The notes beneath the pieces were generated by a model, which ran no database searches, was not told the origin of the DNA, and saw nothing but the letters and a program-made list of their open reading frames with translations. 64,000 bases of DNA. Source: Chloroflexota bacterium. Lineage in GTDB: Bacteria > Chloroflexota > Limnocylindria > Limnocylindrales > CSP1-4. Below, piece after piece: positions 1,080-35,237 of the stretch. Position 1 is the first letter of the stretch. The number at the start of each line of letters is the position of its first letter. The position numbers and the translations under genes were made by a program. The stretch lies in assembly GCA_012026785.1 (NCBI GenBank), contig VEOW01000115.1, forward strand, positions 3,495 through 67,494. The letters are read 5' to 3'.

Positions 1080-1154
1080 GGGCCCGTAGCTCAGCGGCAG
1101 AGCAGGGGACTTTTAATCCTCGTGTCCTGGGTTCGAATCCCAGCGGGCCCTCCA
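1080..1154 (+). tRNA. tRNA-Lys (anticodon UUU)
   Basis: Cloverleaf read by eye. Acceptor stem GGGCCCG/CGGGCCC, D-arm GTAGCTCAGCGGCAGAGC, anticodon loop CTTTTAA, T-arm CTGGGTTCGAATCCCAG, encoded CCA. Confidence 0.85.
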
Positions 1155-3956: not shown

Positions 3957-5177
3957 ATGCCACAGCAGACCCACGTCATCGTCGGCGCCAGCCTCGCCGG
4001 AGCCAGTGCCGCCGCGGCCCTGCGCAAGCGCGGCTTCGACGGCCGGATCGTTCTGATCGGCGATGAGCCCCATCTCCCGTACGAGCGCCCGGAGCTGTCG
4101 AAGAAGTACCTCCGCGGCGAGGTCGAAACCCCGGTCATCGTGCACGACGAGGCGTTCTACGCGGACTCGGCCATCGAGCTCCTGCGGGGCCGCCGGGTCA
4201 CCGGCCTCGATCTCGATGCCCGCCGGGTGATCATCGATGCCGAGACGATCCGGTTCGACCGGCTGCTGGTCGGGACCGGCGCCTCGCCCCGGCCGCTGGG
4301 CGTGCCCGGCGAGGACCTCCCGGGCGTGCACCGGCTGCGGACCCTGGAGGACGCGGATGCGATTCGCGAGGCGGCCGCTCGCGCGAGCGGCGCCGTCGTC
4401 GTCGGTGGCGGCTGGATCGGCTCGGAGGTGGCTGCCTCGCTGCGCCAGCTCGGCCTCGATGTGGCCGTCGTATCGCTCACCCCAACGCCGCTGGAGCACG
4501 TCCTGGGCGCCGAGATCGGCGCGATCTACCGGGAGACGCACGAGGGGCACGGCGTGCGATTCGTCACGGGTTCGCGCGTTCGGAGAATCCTGGGCACGGA
4601 TCGAGCGACCGGGGTCGAGACGGATGACGGCCGGCGAATCGAGGCCGACCTCGTGATCGTCGGTGTGGGCGCGGATCCGCGGACCGACCTGGCCGTCGCT
4701 GCGGGCCTCGAGGTTCGGAACGGCATCGTCGTCGGCGCCAACCTCGAGACAGGCGCTCCCGGCGTGTTCGCGGCCGGTGACGTGGCGAACGCCTGGCACC
4801 CGTTCTACCGGCGCCACCTCCGGGTCGAGCACTGGGACAACGCCAAGCGCCAGGGCCGGGCGGCCGCGGCGAGCATGCTCGGCGAGCCGACGAGCTACGA
4901 TCGGATCCCGTACTTCTACTCCGACCAGTACGAGCTCGGGATGGAGTACACAGGGCACGCCCTCCACTGGGACGAGGTCGTCATCCGGGGCGACCGCGAG
5001 GCGCGCGAGCTCATCGCCTTCTGGCTCTCCGGTGGGCGCGTCGTGGCCGGCATGAACATGAACGTCTGGGACGTCGCGCCGGCGATCGAGCGGCTCGTCC
5101 GGTCTCGGTCGGCCATCGATCGCGACCGCCTGGCCGACCCGGACGCTCCGCTCGAGGCGCTCGCTCCCGCCGCGTGA
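3957..5177 (+). CDS. FAD/NAD(P)-dependent oxidoreductase, ferredoxin-reductase family
   Basis: Dinucleotide-binding VIVGASLAGASAAAALR and a second VVVGGGWIGSEVAASL. Putidaredoxin-reductase-like architecture. The ATG at 3957 is taken rather than the 3933 ORF start because it abuts the upstream stop. Confidence 0.8.
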   Translation: MPQQTHVIVGASLAGASAAAALRKRGFDGRIVLIGDEPHLPYERPELSKKYLRGEVETPVIVHDEAFYADSAIELLRGRRVTGLDLDARRVIIDAETIRFDRLLVGTGASPRPLGVPGEDLPGVHRLRTLEDADAIREAAARASGAVVVGGGWIGSEVAASLRQLGLDVAVVSLTPTPLEHVLGAEIGAIYRETHEGHGVRFVTGSRVRRILGTDRATGVETDDGRRIEADLVIVGVGADPRTDLAVAAGLEVRNGIVVGANLETGAPGVFAAGDVANAWHPFYRRHLRVEHWDNAKRQGRAAAASMLGEPTSYDRIPYFYSDQYELGMEYTGHALHWDEVVIRGDREARELIAFWLSGGRVVAGMNMNVWDVAPAIERLVRSRSAIDRDRLADPDAPLEALAPAA

Positions 5178-5455
5178 CCGGAGGCGGGGCCCGAAAAGGT
5201 TGCGCGGCCGGCGCGCGATGTCGTATCGTCCGGCCCTCATGCACGAGCCAACCGCCCACCACGAGGCGAAGAAGCTCTGGCGGCCCTGCCGGGAGGCACG
5301 GGCGCCAGGGCTCTGACGGCGCGTCGCACGAGCGACGAACCACCAGGAGCCACCCGGCGCGGAGGCTCCAGGGGCCGCGGACACCACCACCGGTGACCGC
5401 GGTCTTTTGTTTGCAGTCGGAGCCTCCGGAACGGAACAGCGGAGGAACCGACGCC
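5178..5455 (+). promoter_or_regulatory. long structured 5' leader of dapB: candidate riboswitch/attenuator (lysine L-box hypothesis)
   Basis: 278-nt non-coding gap in a gene-dense region. Contains the hairpin CCGCGG-A-CACC..GGTG-A-CCGCGG followed by TCTTTTGTTT. A 10-bp outer helix CGGAGGCTCC/GGAGCCTCCG sits on either side of it. The CCTCC segment in the outer helix can alternatively pair with the GGAGG RBS at about 5441. Confidence 0.4.
5375..5412 (+). terminator. intrinsic-terminator-like hairpin plus U-tract inside the dapB leader
   Basis: Stem CCGCGGACACC / GGTGACCGCGG followed by TCTTTTGTTT. A T-run is conspicuous in this GC-rich genome. Confidence 0.5.
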
Positions 5456-6262
5456 ATGACGACCTTCATCTTCGGAGACGGCCACCTCGGCCGGGCGATC
5501 GCCGCGGCCATCGCGGAACGCGGCGAGGCCGAGCCGATCGTCGTCGGGCGGCCGCCGGACGGCGAGCATCGGGCAACCCGGTTCGTCGGTGCCGACCTCG
5601 TCTTCGACGCCTCGGTTCCCGGCGCCGTCGCCGGGAACGTCGCGGCGGCGCTCGCGGCCGGCTGTCGACGGTTCGTCATCGCCGCGACCGGCTGGGAGGA
5701 TGCTCGAGACGCGGTCGACGAGGCGCTCCGCGCGCATGACGCGGCGGCGGGCGCGGCGCCGAACTACAGTCTCGGGGTCGCCGCACTGCTCCGGCTGACC
5801 GACCTCGCCGGGCAGCTGTTCGCCGCCCTCGACGGCTTCGACCCGTACGTCCTCGAATGGCACCGCCGCGGCAAGGCGGACCGGCCGTCCGGCACGGCCC
5901 GGGAGCTGGCCCGCCGTCTGCTGGCCGTCGATCCTCGAAAGCACACCATCGCCCCGACCGGCTCGTCAGCCCCGGCGCCCGACGAGCGCGAGGTGGCCAG
6001 CGTCCGGGCCGGCGCTTCGCCGGGCATGCACGTCGTGGGCTTCGATGCGGCGGGCGAGACGGTCGAGCTGCGCCTGACGGCGCGCGATCGCTCCGCCTAC
6101 GCGGCCGGGGCGCTCGTGGCGGCCGACTGGCTTCGGGCCGCGCCGCGTTCGCCGGGCATCCACTCGTTCGACGAGGTCGTCGAAGAGCGCATCGGTGTGG
6201 CCGCCAACGGGCCCGGCCCAGCGCTCGAGAAGCCTCGGGCGGTGACCGGCTCCACCGGCTGA
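5456..6262 (+). CDS. dapB: 4-hydroxy-tetrahydrodipicolinate reductase
   Basis: MTTFIFGDGHLGRAI N-terminus and the MHVVGFDAAGETVELRLTARDRSAYAAGAL DapB C-terminal domain. ATG with a GGAGG RBS. The ORF track start 5174 is an upstream in-frame extension. Confidence 0.9.
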   Translation: MTTFIFGDGHLGRAIAAAIAERGEAEPIVVGRPPDGEHRATRFVGADLVFDASVPGAVAGNVAAALAAGCRRFVIAATGWEDARDAVDEALRAHDAAAGAAPNYSLGVAALLRLTDLAGQLFAALDGFDPYVLEWHRRGKADRPSGTARELARRLLAVDPRKHTIAPTGSSAPAPDEREVASVRAGASPGMHVVGFDAAGETVELRLTARDRSAYAAGALVAADWLRAAPRSPGIHSFDEVVEERIGVAANGPGPALEKPRAVTGSTG

Positions 6263-6314
6263 CCGCCTCGCCGCCGTTCGACGCACCGCCAACGAAGCTC
6301 GAAGGAGACCCGAC

Positions 6315-7313
6315 ATGCCCCGCCTCGAACGTCACGCTCGAACCACCCGTCCGGTCCTGCGGGGCGCCCTGACCGCCATGGTCACGCCCTTCACCGCCGA
6401 CGGCGCCCTCGACGAGCCGACCCTGCGCGAGCTCGTCCTGCTCCAGGTCCTGGCCGGGATCGCCGGCCTCGTCCCGTGCGGCACGACCGGCGAGGCGCCG
6501 ACGCTGTCGGTCGCCGAGCGGGAGCGCGTCATCGCGCTGACCGTCGAGACCCTTGCGACGCGACCGTCGCAGCGACGGGTGCCGGTCGTCGCCGGAACGG
6601 GGACCAACGACACCGCCGCGACGATCGCGGCGACGCGCCGCGCCGCCGAACTCGGCGCCGACGCGGCCCTCGTCGTTGCGCCCTACTACAACCGGCCCGA
6701 CGGCCGGATGCTGGAGGCCCACTTCCGGGCGGTGGCCGACGAGGGCGACCTGCCGATCGTCGTCTACAACGTGCCATCGCGGACCGGGACGAACGTTCCG
6801 GCCGACGTCTTCCTGCGGCTGGCCGAGCATCCCCGCGTCATCGCCGTCAAGGAGGCGTCCGGCAACCTGGAGCAGATCGCGGTCATCTGCCGCGATCGGC
6901 CCCGTGACGTGGCCGTCCTGGCCGGTGACGATGCCTGGACCCTCGCGGTGCTCGCGATGGGTGGCGATGGCGTGGTCTCGGTGGCGAGCAACGAGATCCC
7001 GGGTGACATGGTCGGGCTGTGCGCGGCCGCGCTCGCCGGCGACTGGGACGCGGCCCGGCGGATTCACCGTCGCTGGCTGCCGCTGTTCCTCGCCAACTTC
7101 CGCGGCGGCCCGAATCCCGTCCCGGTCAAGGCCGCCCTCGCCGCGATGGGCGTGCTCAGGTCCGATGGCGTTCGGCGGCCGCTGCTCGGCCTCGCCGACG
7201 GCGATCGCGAGTCGCTGATGGCGCTGATGCGCGGGCTCGGCCTCCTGGAGGCGGGGGGCCGGATCGCGACGCGGCAGACGGCGGGCAGGGCGGCCACGGA
7301 GCTCGTCTCGTGA
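6315..7313 (+). CDS. dapA: 4-hydroxy-tetrahydrodipicolinate synthase
   Basis: TALVTPF, GTTGE and a catalytic-Lys region (RVIAVKEASGN), all typical of DapA. Confidence 0.9.
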   Translation: MPRLERHARTTRPVLRGALTAMVTPFTADGALDEPTLRELVLLQVLAGIAGLVPCGTTGEAPTLSVAERERVIALTVETLATRPSQRRVPVVAGTGTNDTAATIAATRRAAELGADAALVVAPYYNRPDGRMLEAHFRAVADEGDLPIVVYNVPSRTGTNVPADVFLRLAEHPRVIAVKEASGNLEQIAVICRDRPRDVAVLAGDDAWTLAVLAMGGDGVVSVASNEIPGDMVGLCAAALAGDWDAARRIHRRWLPLFLANFRGGPNPVPVKAALAAMGVLRSDGVRRPLLGLADGDRESLMALMRGLGLLEAGGRIATRQTAGRAATELVS

Positions 7314-8101
7314 CCGACATCCTGGCCGACCTCGACGCAGGCCGGCGCCGAGCGGCCTCACCGGATCGGGCGGCCACCGCCGGCTGGCGGGTCGACGCGA
7401 GCGTCAAGGCGGAGATCCTCGAGCTGTTCGACCGTGGTGGCGATCGGACCTTCGAGGTCGGCCCGCTGGCGTTCGCCGATCGCGCCTCACTGCCGCTCAA
7501 GCGCCTCCATGACGGCGTCGACGCCAGGGCCGCCCGGGATGCCGGGCGGCCCTGGCGGATCGTGCCCGGCGGGACGAGCCTCCGGGCCGGCGCGCATCTC
7601 GAGCCCGGCGGCGTCGTCATGCCGCCGTCGTTCGTGAACGTCGGCGCCTGGATCGGCGCCGGCACGATGATCGATTCCCACGTCCTGGTCGGCTCCTGCG
7701 CCCAGATCGGGGCGCGCGTCCACCTCGCCGCGGGCGTCGTGATCGGCGGCGTGCTCGAGCCGCCGGGGGCACGGCCGGTCATCGTCGAGGACGACGTCTT
7801 CGTCGGTGGCGGCTGCGGGCTGTACGAGGGCGTGCTGGTCGGACGGGGCGCCGTCCTCGCGGCCGGCGTGACCCTGACCGGGACGTCACGGCTGTTCGAC
7901 CTCGTCCGCGAGCGGGTCATCGAGGGGACAGCCGACGCGCCGCTGGTCGTGCCCGAGCGGGCCGTCGTCGTGCCCGGCACCCGCGCCGTCGACGGGAGCT
8001 TCGGCCGCGAGCACGGCCTCGGGGTCGCGACGGCCCTGATCGTCAAGGACCGCGACGCGGGCACCGATGCGCGGGTCGCGCTCGAGGCGGCGCTCCGGTG
8101 A
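7310..8101 (+). CDS. dapD: tetrahydrodipicolinate N-acyltransferase (DapD/DapH family, hexapeptide-repeat)
   Basis: GTG start overlapping the dapA stop (GTGA). Left-handed beta-helix hexapeptide repeats (VGAWIGAGTMIDSHVLVGSCAQIGARVHLAAGVVIGGVLEP). Confidence 0.8.
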   Translation: MTDILADLDAGRRRAASPDRAATAGWRVDASVKAEILELFDRGGDRTFEVGPLAFADRASLPLKRLHDGVDARAARDAGRPWRIVPGGTSLRAGAHLEPGGVVMPPSFVNVGAWIGAGTMIDSHVLVGSCAQIGARVHLAAGVVIGGVLEPPGARPVIVEDDVFVGGGCGLYEGVLVGRGAVLAAGVTLTGTSRLFDLVRERVIEGTADAPLVVPERAVVVPGTRAVDGSFGREHGLGVATALIVKDRDAGTDARVALEAALR

Positions 8102-9456
8102 GCGCCCTCCGTGCATCCGCGCCGGCAACCCGCGGCCGGCCGGCCGCCACCGACGCGCCGCGCCGGGGCCGTCCGCCGGCCCGCAACGAGATCCTGCGCG
8201 CAGGTCGCCTCGGCGGCCTGGAGCCGGAGAACCTGGCACGGCGTTTCGGGACGCCGCTGTACGCCTACGACCTCGGCGTCGTCGATCGGCAGGTCGCCGC
8301 GCTGCGGGCCGTCCTGCCGCCCGGCTTCGAGCTGGCCTACGCGGTCAAGGCCAACCCGGCGCTGGCGGTCGTGCGCCACCTCGCGCGCCGCGGCCTGGGT
8401 GCGGATGTCGCGTCGGGCGGGGAGATTGAGGCGGCGCTCCGCGCCGGGGTGTCGCCGGCGACGATCGTGATGACCGGGCCCGGCAAGCGCGATGACGAGC
8501 TGGTGCTCGCGGTCCGGACCGGGCTCCGGGCGATCACCGTCGAATCGCTCGGCGAGCTGGAACGGCTCGAGCGAGTCGCGGCCCGGGAGGGGCGGGTCGT
8601 GCCGATCCTGCTTCGAGCCGCCGTGTCGCCCGAGGTCGCGCTGGAGCGGGTCCGGCTCGTCGGCGACGACGGGGCCGGGAAGTTCGGCATGGCCGACGAC
8701 GATCTCCGGCTCGCTGCGCGGCGGGCCGCCCGGTCGGCCCACCTCGAGCCCCTTGGGATCCACGCCTTCGGTGCCTCGAACGTCGTCGACGCGGAGGCCC
8801 TGGCCCGCCATGTCGAGCGAACGGTCGAGCGGGCACGAGCGGTTGCCGCGGAGGCGGGGTTCACGCTTCGGCTCGTCGACGCGGGCGGCGGTCTCGGCAT
8901 TCCGTACGAGCCCGAGGATCGGGAGCTCGACCTCGCCGCGCTCGGCCGCCGGCTGCGCTCGATCAGGAACCGCCTGGAAGGGGATGCGACCACGCGGGAC
9001 GCCCGCGTGCTCCTCGAACCTGGCCGGTTCCTCGTCGGTCCGGCTGGCGCCTACCTGGCCCGGGTCGTCGATCGCAAGTCCGTCGACGGCGCCCACGTCG
9101 TGATCCTCGACGGCGGGATCCACCACCTGCTGCGCCCGGCCCTGGTCGGCCAGGAGCACCGCATCCGGACATTCGGATCGAACGGCGGACCGAGGCCGAA
9201 GGCCTTCCCGGTCACCGTCGCGGGGCCGCTCTGCTCCGGCCTCGACGTGCTCACGTCCCAGGCCGTGATGCCGCCGCCGGCGATCGGCGACTTGGTCGCA
9301 GCCCTCGACGTCGGCGCCTACGGCTTCACCGAATCGATGCCGTTTTTCCTATCGCACCCGACCCCCGCGGAGGTCGTCATCAGCGACGGCGAGGCCAGGC
9401 TGGCCCGGCGACGGATCGAGCCACGCGAATGGCTCGCGATGCAGGAGGTCCCGTGA
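8098..9456 (+). CDS. lysA: diaminopimelate decarboxylase
   Basis: PLP-fold motifs YAVKANP, GGGLGIPY and CSGLD. ATGA overlap with dapD. Confidence 0.9.
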   Translation: MSALRASAPATRGRPAATDAPRRGRPPARNEILRAGRLGGLEPENLARRFGTPLYAYDLGVVDRQVAALRAVLPPGFELAYAVKANPALAVVRHLARRGLGADVASGGEIEAALRAGVSPATIVMTGPGKRDDELVLAVRTGLRAITVESLGELERLERVAAREGRVVPILLRAAVSPEVALERVRLVGDDGAGKFGMADDDLRLAARRAARSAHLEPLGIHAFGASNVVDAEALARHVERTVERARAVAAEAGFTLRLVDAGGGLGIPYEPEDRELDLAALGRRLRSIRNRLEGDATTRDARVLLEPGRFLVGPAGAYLARVVDRKSVDGAHVVILDGGIHHLLRPALVGQEHRIRTFGSNGGPRPKAFPVTVAGPLCSGLDVLTSQAVMPPPAIGDLVAALDVGAYGFTESMPFFLSHPTPAEVVISDGEARLARRRIEPREWLAMQEVP

Positions 9457-9495: not shown

Positions 9496-11067
9496 ATGCA
9501 GGGTCGCGTGGAGAATCGGCGAGGCGAGGGCCGTCGCGAGCGTCGTGAGCGCCGCGCGGCGGCGGGGGTTCCCCGGCTGCCGTGGCGCCGGATCGTCAAC
9601 CCGTTCCCGCCGCTCGAGATCCTGAGCGTCGATCAGCTCGAGACGATCCACCAGGCGGGGCTCCGGATCCTGCGCGACATGGGCGTTGAGGTTCTCGGCG
9701 GGCGCGCTATCGATCACTTCGAGCGAGCCGGGGCGAGCGTCGAGCGAGAGGGCGACGTCGCCGGCCGCGGGGCGGCCGGGCTGGTCCGACTCGAGCCCGC
9801 CCACGTGGAGGAGCTGGTCGCCAGGGCGCCGTCGCGCTTCGAGCTGTTCGCCCGCAACCCCGATCGAAACCTCGTCTTCGGCGATCGCCACCTCGTCTTC
9901 GGAGCCGTCGGCGGCCCGGCCTTCGTGACCGACATCGACCGTGGCCGGCGGGCCGGCAACTTCGAGGATTTCGAAGCCTACGTCCGCCTGATCGGCGCGC
10001 TCGACGTCATTCACCAGGAGGCCGGCGGACCGCTCGAGCCGACCGACCTGCCGGTCGAGACGCGGCACCTCGACATGTACCGGACGCTGGCCACGACGCT
10101 CGACAAGACGTGGCAGTGCCTGGCCTACGGGCGCGAGACCGTGGACGATGCGATCGAGATCGCCTGCCTGGCGCGCGGGGTCAACCGCGAGCAGCTGGTG
10201 CGCGAGCCGAGCCTGATGACGATCGTGAACACCAACTCGCCGCTGCGCCTCGATGGCCCGATGTCCGAGGGGCTGATCGAGATGGCGACCTGGGGCCAGC
10301 CGGTCGTCGTGACCCCGTTCACGATCTCCGGCGCGATGGCGCCCGCCACGCTCGCCGGCGCCCTCGCCGAGCAGCACGCCGAGGCGCTGTTCGTCGTCGC
10401 CCTCGCCGAGATCGTCCGACCCGGGACGCCGATGATCTACGGCGGCTTCACCTCGAACGTCGACATGCGGACCGGCTCGCCGGCCTTCGGCACGCCCGAG
10501 TACGTGAAGGCGCAGCTCGCCAGCGGCCAGCTGGCCCGGCGGGTCGGGCTGCCGTTGCGCTCGTCGAACGTCACCGGCTCGGCGGTCGTCGATGCCCAGG
10601 CGGCGTACGAGAGCGAGATGTCGATCTGGGGGGCGATGCTGGCCGGCGCAAACCTGCTGTACCAGGGCGCGGGCTGGCTGGAAGGCGGCCTCACCGCGTC
10701 GTTCGAGAAGCTGATCCTCGACGCGGAGCTGCTCCAGCAGATGGCGCTGGTGCTCGAGCCGATCGCGGTCTCGGACGACGAGCTGGGGCTCGATGCGATC
10801 GCCGAGGTCGGCCCCGGCGGCCACTTCTTCGGGGCGGCCCACACGCTGGCGAGGTTCGAGACGGCCTTCTACCAGCCGATGCTCTCGGACTGGCGGAACT
10901 TCGAGACGTGGCGCGACGACGGCGCTCGGACTGCGACCGAGCGGGCGAACGCCATCTGGAAGCGACTCCTGGCCGAGTTCGAGCCGCCGCCGCTCGATCC
11001 GGGCACCGCCGAGGCCATCGACGCCTTCGTCGAGCGTCGGAAGCGCGAGATCGTGCCCGGCGGGTAA
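9496..11067 (+). CDS. MttB-superfamily (trimethylamine-methyltransferase-like) methyltransferase, non-pyrrolysine type
   Basis: 523 aa with an Arg-rich N-terminus, a GPGGHFFGAAHT motif near the C-terminus and overall MttB-family similarity. There is no in-frame TAG. Confidence 0.75.
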   Translation: MQGRVENRRGEGRRERRERRAAAGVPRLPWRRIVNPFPPLEILSVDQLETIHQAGLRILRDMGVEVLGGRAIDHFERAGASVEREGDVAGRGAAGLVRLEPAHVEELVARAPSRFELFARNPDRNLVFGDRHLVFGAVGGPAFVTDIDRGRRAGNFEDFEAYVRLIGALDVIHQEAGGPLEPTDLPVETRHLDMYRTLATTLDKTWQCLAYGRETVDDAIEIACLARGVNREQLVREPSLMTIVNTNSPLRLDGPMSEGLIEMATWGQPVVVTPFTISGAMAPATLAGALAEQHAEALFVVALAEIVRPGTPMIYGGFTSNVDMRTGSPAFGTPEYVKAQLASGQLARRVGLPLRSSNVTGSAVVDAQAAYESEMSIWGAMLAGANLLYQGAGWLEGGLTASFEKLILDAELLQQMALVLEPIAVSDDELGLDAIAEVGPGGHFFGAAHTLARFETAFYQPMLSDWRNFETWRDDGARTATERANAIWKRLLAEFEPPPLDPGTAEAIDAFVERRKREIVPGG

Positions 11068-35162: not shown

Positions 35163-35237
35163 CGCGGGGTGGAGCAGCGGCAGCTCGTCGGGCTCATAAC
35201 CCGAAGGTCAGGGGTTCGAATCCCCTCCCCGCAACCA
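35163..35237 (+). tRNA. initiator tRNA-fMet (anticodon CAU)
   Basis: CGCGGGG...CTCATAA...CCCCGCAACCA. The C1:A72 mismatch and three G-C pairs in the anticodon stem are characteristic of bacterial initiator tRNA. Confidence 0.85.

Follow-up and report, generated by a model that had tools for sequence, protein, structure and literature searches.

In a 64,000-nucleotide (nt) stretch of DNA from a Chloroflexota bacterium (contig VEOW01000115.1; hereafter the window), the lysine operon dapB-dapA-dapD-lysA is preceded by a structured leader that is probably a ribosome-mediated (leader-peptide) transcription attenuator, sensing the supply of charged tRNA-Lys for an operon of the diaminopimelate (DAP) pathway. 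The leader most likely represents a new RNA family of a known regulator type, conserved through Limnocylindria, an uncultured class of Chloroflexota. It occupies the gap between the stop codon of a flavin adenine dinucleotide (FAD)/pyridine-nucleotide reductase gene (stop at 5177) and the start of dapB, which spans 5178-5455 and is 278 nt long, as an earlier note on this DNA had stated. That note had proposed a lysine-responsive leader with a terminator and an element masking the Shine-Dalgarno (SD) sequence, and had named a lysine riboswitch as the obvious candidate. A conserved cis-regulatory leader was found, for which a lysine-related signal is the obvious input; a lysine riboswitch was not. 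Because the leader has no Rfam match (RF00168 included), consists of simple hairpins in series and carries an open reading frame (ORF) with lysine codons, its sensor is most likely a ribosome reading those codons, and thus charged tRNA-Lys, not a lysine aptamer. Four of five sequence-level hallmarks of an attenuator are present, among them a short ORF at the start of the leader, clustered cognate codons and an intrinsic terminator before the first structural gene. The fifth, mutually exclusive pairings that link the ribosome to the terminator, is partly established, given the footprint dependence and the thin covariation described below.

Conservation and Distribution of the Leader

Homologous loci were collected by scanning with the window DapB and keeping one genome per species, which yielded 80 loci. 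Almost all are metagenome-assembled genomes labeled Chloroflexota (Limnocylindria or unclassified Chloroflexia/Chloroflexi), and their DapB proteins are 41%-77% identical to that of the window. The earlier note had suggested comparing dapB leaders among relatives; in BLASTN searches, window positions 5268-5432 (about 165 nt) were 70%-83% identical to sequence lying directly 5′ of dapB in about 75 of the 80 loci, the conserved block thereby exceeding in identity the protein encoded downstream of it, and the native helices covary (see below). The genes that follow dapB are also retained (dapA at 78/80 loci, dapD at 77/80 and lysA at 71/80). The genes upstream of the leader in the window, encoding the FAD reductase, a RibD_C protein and GTP cyclohydrolase I, were 5′ of dapB at 0/80 related loci. 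Because leader and operon are kept while these upstream genes are absent, the leader is part of the dapB operon rather than of the upstream gene.

In total, 146 leaders were identified, of which 75 genome leaders were aligned (alignment A1). Metagenome contigs were searched with a pattern scan that gave 120 matches, 66 of them true leaders; the remaining 54 were without lysine codons and had no dapB match on the contig. Where a true metagenome leader was followed by at least 600 nt of sequence, dapB came next in 45 of 47 cases, and the two without dapB (L162 and L169) are on broken contigs. In L162 the leader breaks off after segment 2 (defined below) and in L169 the homology ends about 13 codons into dapB, each then continuing into unrelated sequence; both contigs are probably assembly chimeras or rearrangements. 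The window holds one copy of the motif and each genome locus at most one (exact match in 59/80). No other copy of the RNA motif, and no other candidate for a short ORF (sORF) with lysine codons, was found in the 64-kb window. Among the 146 leaders, the RNA motif was found solely before dapB, leaders of unrelated sequence not having been searched for genome-wide; within this set the element associates exclusively with dapB-dapA-dapD-lysA.

Two further observations came from the same scans. A divergent leader from a lake Chloroflexi contig (L027, positions 400-600) has the same design with different sequences: TTGCAC, 17 nt, CATACT, 9 nt and a GTG start, followed by the leader peptide ITSWLKRRKQRSPAEAVGR and a stop codon, and a terminator GCCGCAGG..CCUGCGGC followed by UUUUUGAUUU. 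It suggests that the family extends beyond the set detectable by BLAST. In addition, the chance pattern matches in metagenome contigs L092, L106, L107 and L146 share an unrelated conserved stretch, AACACATCATACTGCATgGCTAc-GCGGCCCCGTCaGGAGACTTCGGT, which may represent a second small structured RNA, equipped with a promoter-like CATACT box of its own.

Promoter and Leader-Peptide Reading Frame

Alignment of the regions upstream of the 75 genome leaders placed a sigma-70-type promoter immediately before a short ORF. The features in the window are:

5200-5205, forward strand: predicted -35 box TTGCGC (consensus in relatives TTGCAt/TTGACA), from the aligned upstream regions
5224-5229, forward strand: predicted -10 box TATCGT (consensus cAtACT/TAtgGT), with exactly 9 nt between it and the ATG of the ORF
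5239-5316, forward strand: leader-peptide ORF of 25 codons, predicted to be leaderless, encoding MHEPTAHHEAKKLWRPCREARAPGL and a stop codon; an ATG-to-stop frame occurs here in all aligned leaders

Counted from the in-frame ATG, the commonest bases at -38, -37 and -36 are T, T and G (57, 46 and 44 of 75 leaders), the spacer between the -35 and -10 boxes measures 16-19 nt in 61/75, and a hexamer xAxxxT stands exactly at -15 to -10 in 50/75. The GTG start of L027 keeps the same 9-nt spacing to its -10 box. Position -3 is a purine in 80% of leaders, and -1 and -2 are pyrimidines. No SD sequence was found between the -10 box and the ATG in the aligned leaders. From this arrangement, transcription would start at ATG 5239 or 1-3 nt before it, leaving a 5′ untranslated region (UTR) of 0-3 nt. 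Because the promoter spacing allows a 5′ UTR of at most about 3 nt, the ORF is predicted to be translated in leaderless mode. ATG 5218 was considered as an alternative start and rejected, as it falls inside the promoter spacer and is absent in L005. A simple promoter and terminator scan of 4800-5800 found nothing, which is uninformative, since the promoter hexamers are weak and the terminator has an internal loop.

All 75 aligned leaders contain an in-frame ORF, from ATG to stop, of 19-28 codons. In every leader the ATG is located 6-14 codons before a K-K-K, K-x-K or x-K-K motif, and the stop codon is always at or inside the 3′ arm of the first hairpin, P1. The encoded peptides include MSHHLVSFDAKKKHWRPCRKARALGL in L048, MNHVALKAKRWRPCREARA in L009 and MAHILVLKPKRWRPCLEAVA in L077, each followed by a stop codon. 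Searches of the leader peptide against Pfam and NCBIfam gave no match.

Lysine Codons and Codon-Wise Constraint

Codons were numbered relative to the R of W-R-P (codon 0) and entropies were calculated codon-wise over the 75 leaders, H1 and H3 denoting the first and third codon positions. The cognate codons of the window are:

5269-5274, forward strand: regulatory lysine codons AAG AAG (KKK, KxK or xKK in relatives), identified by codon conservation

Lysine is encoded at codon -3 in 75/75 leaders, at codon -5 in 89% and at codon -4 in 53%, and at least two lysine codons fall among positions -5 to -3 in 75/75 genome leaders. In the metagenome leaders the motif is KKK, KxK or RKK in 66/66. Leader L049 has AAA in place of AAG, a synonymous change. 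The distance from the lysine codons to the P1 core GCGGCCC is fixed at 5 nt, and these two or three codons are the sole coding feature conserved across subgroups. The codons N-terminal to them vary freely and in a wobble-type manner, as at codon -7 (D or E), where H3 = 1.74 versus H1 = 0.54. Codons 0 to +7 (R-P-C-R-E-A-R-A) hardly vary at any of the three positions, and the changes that do occur there alter the amino acid and keep the base pairs, for example TGC to AGC or AGT together with GCA to GCT or ACT. By this pattern of variation, the 5′ half of the ORF is constrained as lysine codons at a fixed distance, and the 3′ half as RNA.

The stretch near 5262, GAGGCGaaGAAG, which the earlier note had compared to the 5′ core of the L-box, is accounted for by codons GAG GCG AAG AAG (E-A-K-K) of this conserved ORF. 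A resemblance of 5269-5277 and its homologues to the K-x-K "+x+" motif of macrolide arrest (PMC12583479) was also considered and set aside, as the gene context is a lysine operon and xKK variants exist; it is probably a coincidence.

Native Hairpins, Terminator and Predicted Masking of the dapB SD

The leader as a whole (5178-5470) folds at -153.6 kcal/mol (z = -4.28). Its consensus fold consists of three or four independent hairpins in series, with the conserved bases in stems. The elements, in order, are:

5270-5314, forward strand: hairpin P1, made of segment 1 (5270-5290), a GGGA loop (5291-5294) and segment 2 (5295-5314), and covering the 3′ two-thirds of the leader-peptide ORF
5280-5286, forward strand: segment-1 core GCGGCCC, complementary to segment 2 (GGGC) and to the terminator 5′ arm
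5322-5337, forward strand: P2, a small variable hairpin CGUCGC-ACGA-GCGACG, predicted in both conformers
5346-5369, forward strand: hairpin P3, made of segment A (GGAGCCACC, 5346-5354) and segment B (GGAGGCUCC, 5361-5369)
5371-5412, forward strand: intrinsic terminator T, with its stem at 5371-5406, U-tract UCUUUUGUUU at 5403-5412 and 5′ arm core GGGCCGC at 5372-5378
5419-5428, forward strand: segment C (GGAGCCUCCG), which pairs with B (10 base pairs [bp], enclosing T) or, via CCUCCG, with the dapB SD
5440-5445, forward strand: dapB SD region CGGAGG, predicted to be paired to 5423-5428 in the ground state

P1 folds at -33.7 kcal/mol (z = -4.4), and its inner stem covaries (UA to AU or the reverse in 17 sequences, CG and UA in 13, GC and AU in 2). 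P2 differs in sequence and length between subgroups and has a GNRA-type loop, GCGA or GCAA, in most relatives. P3 folds at -14.1 kcal/mol and shows exchange of CG and GC in 13 sequences; as a duplex, A:B has z = -3.4, with 94% of leaders at p <= 0.05. Segment B resembles an SD sequence. Over A1, the native helices (P1 inner stem, P3 and T) are paired in 97.8% of alignment cells, 7 pairs have double-sided changes (71 cells), and 0/500 shuffles reach either the observed pairing or the observed covariation. Sliding the helix partners against each other lowers pairing to 37%-51%.

The helices described in the earlier note all held up when folded against shuffled sequences. The strong hairpin with a U-rich tail is T itself (GGGGCCGCGG-A-CACC / GGUG-A-CCGCGGUCUU), which folds at -24.5 kcal/mol (z = -4.3), with 0/200 shuffles folding as well. 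Exchange of GC and AU occurs at two of its pairs (13 and 7 sequences), and all leaders retain the T-rich tail. T escaped the simple terminator scan owing to its 1x1 internal loop. The perfect 10-bp helix described as bracketing the terminator, CGGAGGCUCC (5360-5369) with GGAGCCUCCG (5419-5428), pairs exactly and, with the enclosed hairpin, folds at -45.5 kcal/mol (z = -4.6). Because this helix encloses the terminator rather than competing with it, it cannot be the antiterminator. The CCTCC of its 3′ arm can mask the GGAGG of dapB, as proposed: CCUCCG (5423-5428) and CGGAGG (5440-5445) form a local hairpin of -21 kcal/mol (z = -3.65) that is part of the minimum-free-energy state of the whole leader. 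The predicted probability that the SD is unpaired is 0.00 in the window and on average 0.24 over 63 leaders, its partner being located 20-45 nt upstream of it; in L019, CCUCCG/CGGAGG is replaced by CCUCCA/UGGAGG.

Alternative Pairings

For helices 2:A, B:C and the outer part of P1, column-wise covariation fails, as the register shifts between subgroups; duplex energies were therefore calculated per sequence and compared with shuffles. In every subgroup, A can pair alternatively with the 3′ part of segment 2. In most subgroups this duplex has 9-10 bp and -15 to -22 kcal/mol with differing sequences (for example GGGGCUCUG:CGGAGCCUC, GAGGCUUCG:CGGGGCCUC and GCAGGCCUCG:CGGGGCCUGC); in the window's own subgroup it is weaker, with 6-7 bp and about -12 to -13 kcal/mol. 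Against shuffles, 2:A has z = -2.2, with 70% of leaders at p <= 0.05 (controls 6%-19%). B and C remain complementary in each of the four subgroups although their sequences differ (z = -1.4; 41% at p <= 0.05; controls 6%-19%), and C or a second CCUCC copy pairs with the dapB SD.

Segment 1 can likewise pair with B and the terminator 5′ arm, at -22 to -28 kcal/mol. The core of this helix, 5280-5286 with 5372-5378 (GCGGCCC:GGGCCGC), is paired in 99.8% of A1 cells. In 137 leaders, it shows 2 independent compensatory changes, 9 wobble changes and 2 mismatches; the compensatory changes are GCGACCC/GGGUCGC in L071 and L073, and GCGGCUC/GAGCCGC in L022 (1113-1308). By these models, the leader can adopt either P1, P3 and T, or one long hairpin with 2:A inside and 1:(B + terminator 5′ arm) outside, which uses up the terminator 5′ arm.

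Folding with a Ribosome Mask

Equilibrium folding of the full attenuator cannot tell ribosome states apart and was replaced by constrained folding of the RNA made before the terminator 3′ arm, with the ribosome footprint masked, in 74 leaders. Pairing of the core with the terminator 5′ arm had a mean probability of 0.19 with no ribosome, which rose to 0.84 with the A site on the first lysine codon. In a codon-by-codon scan, sequestration of the terminator 5′ arm peaked at the first lysine codon and the codon preceding it, with a second peak near the stop codon. In the window, whose subgroup has two lysine codons and a longer, perfect P1, placing the A site on the first lysine codon (5269-5271) raised the same probability from 0.00 to 0.98 when the mask reached +10 and to 0.69 when it reached +11. 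With other footprints the terminator 5′ arm paired with segment 2 instead, and with the A site on the second lysine codon and a short mask it was largely free. Across these models the direction of control, from a stall at lysine codons through an occupied terminator 5′ arm to read-through, is robust; which helix is the effective antiterminator, and at which position exactly the ribosome stalls, is not.

A number of results weigh against an attenuator of this kind. The window leader has only two lysine codons. Both strands of the core:terminator 5′ arm helix are nearly invariant, so that its covariation is thin. When the terminator 3′ arm is included, equilibrium folds form T in every ribosome state. 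With the A site on the last lysine codon the core is masked and its mean pairing with the terminator 5′ arm is 0.00, and with the ribosome on the stop codon it is 0.73. The switch depends on the assumed ribosome footprint, and in the window's subgroup it is limited to masks ending just before the core, at +10 or +11. Release of the SD by a stalled ribosome was not reproduced, predicted SD accessibility being unchanged across ribosome masks, and complementarity of C to the SD is not above control. Because the equilibrium folds keep T in every ribosome state, the antiterminator can only work kinetically; in the E. coli trp attenuator, the terminator is likewise the more stable helix. The stop-codon state may be discounted, as the core:terminator 5′ arm helix would there have to bridge the ribosome, whereas the conformer of the lysine-codon stall lies wholly downstream of it.

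Proposed Mechanism

In the attenuator that we consider probable, the sigma-70-type promoter would start the transcript at or 1-3 nt before ATG 5239, and the 25-codon ORF would be translated without an SD, in leaderless mode. When lysine is plentiful, or when no ribosome is present, P1, P3 and T would form in succession and polymerase would stop at about 5412 once T has formed; in any read-through RNA, the dapB SD would be masked by the CCUCC of segment C. When Lys-tRNA is scarce, the ribosome would stall with a lysine codon (5269-5274) in the A site, and its footprint would melt P1 along its outer 5′ strand, stopping at the base of the GCGGCCC core. Segment 2, the 3′ strand of the hairpin, would thereby be freed and capture A as soon as A is made, leaving B unable to close P3, and the segment-1 core would capture B and the terminator 5′ arm (5280-5286 with 5372-5378). 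The resulting long hairpin would lie wholly on the downstream side of the ribosome. T, having lost its 5′ arm to this hairpin, would not form in time, and polymerase would read into dapB-dapA-dapD-lysA. As a possible second layer, freed B might pair with C and release the SD, adding translational control; on the folding models, this layer is a hypothesis only. Stalling on the lysine codons and the direction and size of the response in vivo are likewise expectations of the scheme.

Alternative Explanations

Searches for known RNA families bear on the first alternatives. At gathering thresholds, Rfam 15 matched only two tRNAs in the 64-kb window (1080-1151 and 35163-35234). At E <= 10, no family matched credibly in the kind of scan for RF00168 and other riboswitch models that the earlier note had proposed: region 5100-5520 gave chance-level microRNA and pseudoknot matches only, and the homologous leaders L048 and L057 gave chance matches to small RNAs (sRNAs), small nucleolar RNAs and microRNAs only. 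T-box and the Rfam amino-acid leader families were also without a match at E <= 10 in the window leader, L048 and L057.

A ligand-binding riboswitch of a new class, other than the L-box, could account for a leader of this kind if P1-P2-P3 bound lysine or a DAP intermediate and so selected the fold, the ORF being incidental. The nucleotides of P1 are extremely conserved, third codon positions included (H3 about 0-0.3 in codons 0 to +7), the structure is significant (z = -4.3), the helices covary, and a terminator and an anti-SD could serve as expression platform. However, there is no Rfam match, and the hairpins are plain, with GNRA-type loops and neither a conserved multi-helix junction nor an unpaired core. 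The near-invariance of GCGGCCC is explained by its two RNA partners. A riboswitch would also leave unexplained a promoter placed 9 nt before an in-frame ATG or GTG, lysine codons held at a fixed distance amid varying intervening and preceding codons, the AAA-for-AAG substitution, and a stop codon in the P1 3′ arm. We consider this explanation unlikely.

In another proposal, W-R-P-C-R-E-A-R-A would be more than a by-product of constraint on the RNA: it would arrest the ribosome near the stop codon in response to a metabolite in the exit tunnel (free lysine, DAP or other), so that a single 25-codon ORF would combine this input with tRNA-Lys charging at the lysine codons. Such an element would drive both the terminator and the masking of the SD through a relay of five mutually exclusive helices, among them the SD mimic B. 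It would be in keeping with the predicted effect of a ribosome at the stop codon on the terminator 5′ arm and with the near-invariance of the R, P and A-R-A positions. We consider this proposal, too, unlikely.

The peptide might also act by itself, either as a nascent chain (W-R-P-C-R-E-A-R-A) that arrests near the stop codon on sensing free lysine or another molecule, in the manner of TnaC or SpeFL, or as a free micropeptide. In favor of such a role are the invariant R and P codons, the conserved A-R-A tail and the prediction that a ribosome at the stop codon favors sequestration of the terminator 5′ arm. Yet the conserved codons lack synonymous variation (CGG in 73/75, CCC in 70/75), which points to constraint on the RNA, and the changes observed (C to S, G or R; E to K; A to T) alter the residue while preserving base pairs. 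The peptide ends are variable (RA, RAL or RALGL before the stop), Pfam and NCBIfam gave no match, and a stall under abundant lysine would switch a biosynthetic operon on, which is the wrong logic. An active peptide is thus very unlikely.

Protein-mediated attenuation, in which a lysine-responsive RNA-binding protein would bind P1 as TRAP, PyrR and HutP do their targets, is highly improbable. An invariant, conserved hairpin could be a protein site, and nothing in the sequence speaks otherwise. No candidate regulator gene, however, is linked to the operon in the window or at the related loci, the promoter-adjacent ORF and its lysine codons would be unexplained, and RNA-only pairings already account for the invariant bases.

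The known lysine riboswitch (L-box, RF00168) has in its favor only the lysine-operon context and the purine-rich stretch GAGGCGAAGAAG; this stretch consists of the codons E-A-K-K, there is no five-helix junction, and RF00168 stayed without a match in the window and in two homologous leaders even at E <= 10 under permissive filtering, so that the L-box is already refuted as far as sequence and structure models can test. As little remains of the option, raised in the earlier note, that the hairpin serves to terminate the upstream FAD-oxidoreductase gene, in which case the remaining gap would be unconstrained spacer: the hairpin does lie downstream of that gene on the same strand, but about 195 nt past its stop codon and beyond a conserved promoter and ORF, and the synteny comparison refutes this reading, the FAD reductase, RibD_C and GTP cyclohydrolase genes being found 5′ of dapB at 0/80 related loci, whereas leader and terminator are kept.

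The Regulated Operon and Neighboring Genes

The genes downstream of the leader were assigned with Pfam and NCBIfam as follows:

5456-6262, forward strand: dapB (Pfam DapB_C passes threshold; TIGR00036 is under cutoff)
6315-7313, forward strand: dapA (TIGR00674, above the NCBIfam cutoff)
7310-8101, forward strand: dapD (NF008808, above the NCBIfam cutoff; ATG 7310 overlaps the dapA stop)
8098-9456, forward strand: lysA (TIGR01048, 283 bits versus a cutoff of 298)
5456-9456, forward strand: the regulated operon dapB-dapA-dapD-lysA (Pfam and NCBIfam; gene order kept in related loci)

The statement of the earlier note that the downstream genes are lysine-biosynthetic is in keeping with these matches, dapA and dapD scoring above cutoff, dapB being identified by DapB_C and lysA falling at 283 versus 298 bits. 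Its remark that most neighboring genes overlap by 4 nt was likewise seen at 7310/7313 (dapA/dapD) and 8098/8101 (dapD/lysA). The start of dapB was assigned to ATG 5456 because residues 8-13 of the product form the Rossmann motif GDGHLG and because GGAGG is located 10 nt 5′ of this codon. The window DapB is divergent: Pfam detects the C-terminal domain only, TIGR00036 scores 87 bits versus a cutoff of 122, and the N-terminal Rossmann part is short (about 106 amino acids).

An alternative dapB start at GTG 5174, in an in-frame ORF (5174-6262) that spans the leader, was rejected, as homologues align from M5456 and the 94-amino-acid extension has no Pfam match. This ORF is an artefact of the 71% G+C composition of the genome, and could mislead gene callers and so hide the leader. 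Antisense ORFs at 5011-5679 and 5237-5944 were also discarded, Pfam giving no match. Downstream of the operon, 39 nt after lysA, is a gene of the MttB family (trimethylamine methyltransferase-like; 9496-11067, forward strand; PF06253, E = 3e-187), which is probably a non-pyrrolysine MttB homologue.

Comparison with Known Systems

The classical leader-peptide attenuators of amino-acid operons are trpL, hisL, thrL, leuL and pheL of E. coli and Salmonella. The leader described here shares with them a short leader ORF with tandem cognate codons, an intrinsic terminator before the first structural gene, overlapping and mutually exclusive hairpins, a stop codon in the second segment and, as predicted, termination by default without a stall. 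It differs in serving a lysine/DAP operon, in an ORF that is apparently leaderless rather than led by an SD, and in its uncultured Chloroflexota host. Classical attenuators use four segments, whereas five or six interact here, namely segments 1, 2, A, B and C together with the terminator 5′ arm. As antiterminator we propose a long hairpin, built from 2:A and 1:B/terminator 5′ arm, in which segment 1 itself takes part, and there is no match to the Rfam leaders. The hisL attenuator is summarized in PMC12360218.

Two further attenuators resemble the leaderless design predicted here. In mycobacteria, leaderless sORFs with at least two consecutive Cys codons attenuate Cys operons, forming a "Cys ribulon" (Canestrari et al., bioRxiv 10.1101/834739). 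As is predicted for the dapB leader, the first cistron there is an sORF translated in leaderless mode, a run of at least two cognate codons suffices, the SD of the next gene is in an RNA duplex, and the ribosome senses charged tRNA. The dissected locus of the Cys ribulon is under translational control by SD unmasking, with no terminator, whereas a canonical intrinsic terminator is the conserved centerpiece here; several loci share the design in the Cys ribulon, and here, among 146 leaders, the dapB operon only; and the stalled ribosome unmasks the SD in the Cys ribulon, a relief that our folding model did not reproduce. In Sinorhizobium meliloti, the leader ORF trpL (rnTrpL) is at the 5′ end of the transcript and forms a leaderless trp attenuator (PMC10117765). 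It resembles the present leader in that an attenuator would be driven by leaderless translation; it differs in sensing tryptophan, in its alphaproteobacterial host and in its unrelated RNA. Trans-acting roles of the sRNA and the peptide have been shown for rnTrpL.

With respect to lysine, the riboswitch RF00168 also acts in the 5′ leader of lysine biosynthesis genes, which it controls by means of a terminator or an SD-sequestering platform. The dapB leader has no match to it in sequence or structure, lacks a five-way junction and carries an ORF with lysine codons in place of an aptamer. The lysine cluster of Thermus thermophilus, which follows the alpha-aminoadipate (AAA) pathway, is reportedly attenuated by means of a leader peptide with lysine codons. 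That leader likewise combines a short ORF with tandem lysine codons and a terminator before the lysine cluster, with translation-based sensing, and differs in pathway (AAA versus DAP), phylum, and RNA and peptide sequences, the comparison being by description only. It is, to our knowledge, the sole earlier example of a lysine leader peptide. Literature searches for a dapB or lysine leader peptide returned none described for a DAP-pathway operon or in Chloroflexota.

Significance

The leader constitutes a well-defined structured-RNA family that is absent from Rfam and usable for annotating Limnocylindria genomes. It offers a testable case of leaderless sORF attenuation outside Actinobacteria, and its compact multi-segment relay, with an SD mimic and anti-SD copies, could interest those who engineer attenuators. 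It also calls for caution, in that a long structured leader with a terminator before an amino-acid operon does not of itself point to a riboswitch. Control of lysine biosynthesis is usually described as exerted by the L-box riboswitch or by protein regulators. The present analysis indicates that Limnocylindria, an abundant class of uncultured soil and freshwater Chloroflexota, instead use the ribosome as lysine sensor, by way of a leaderless peptide with lysine codons.

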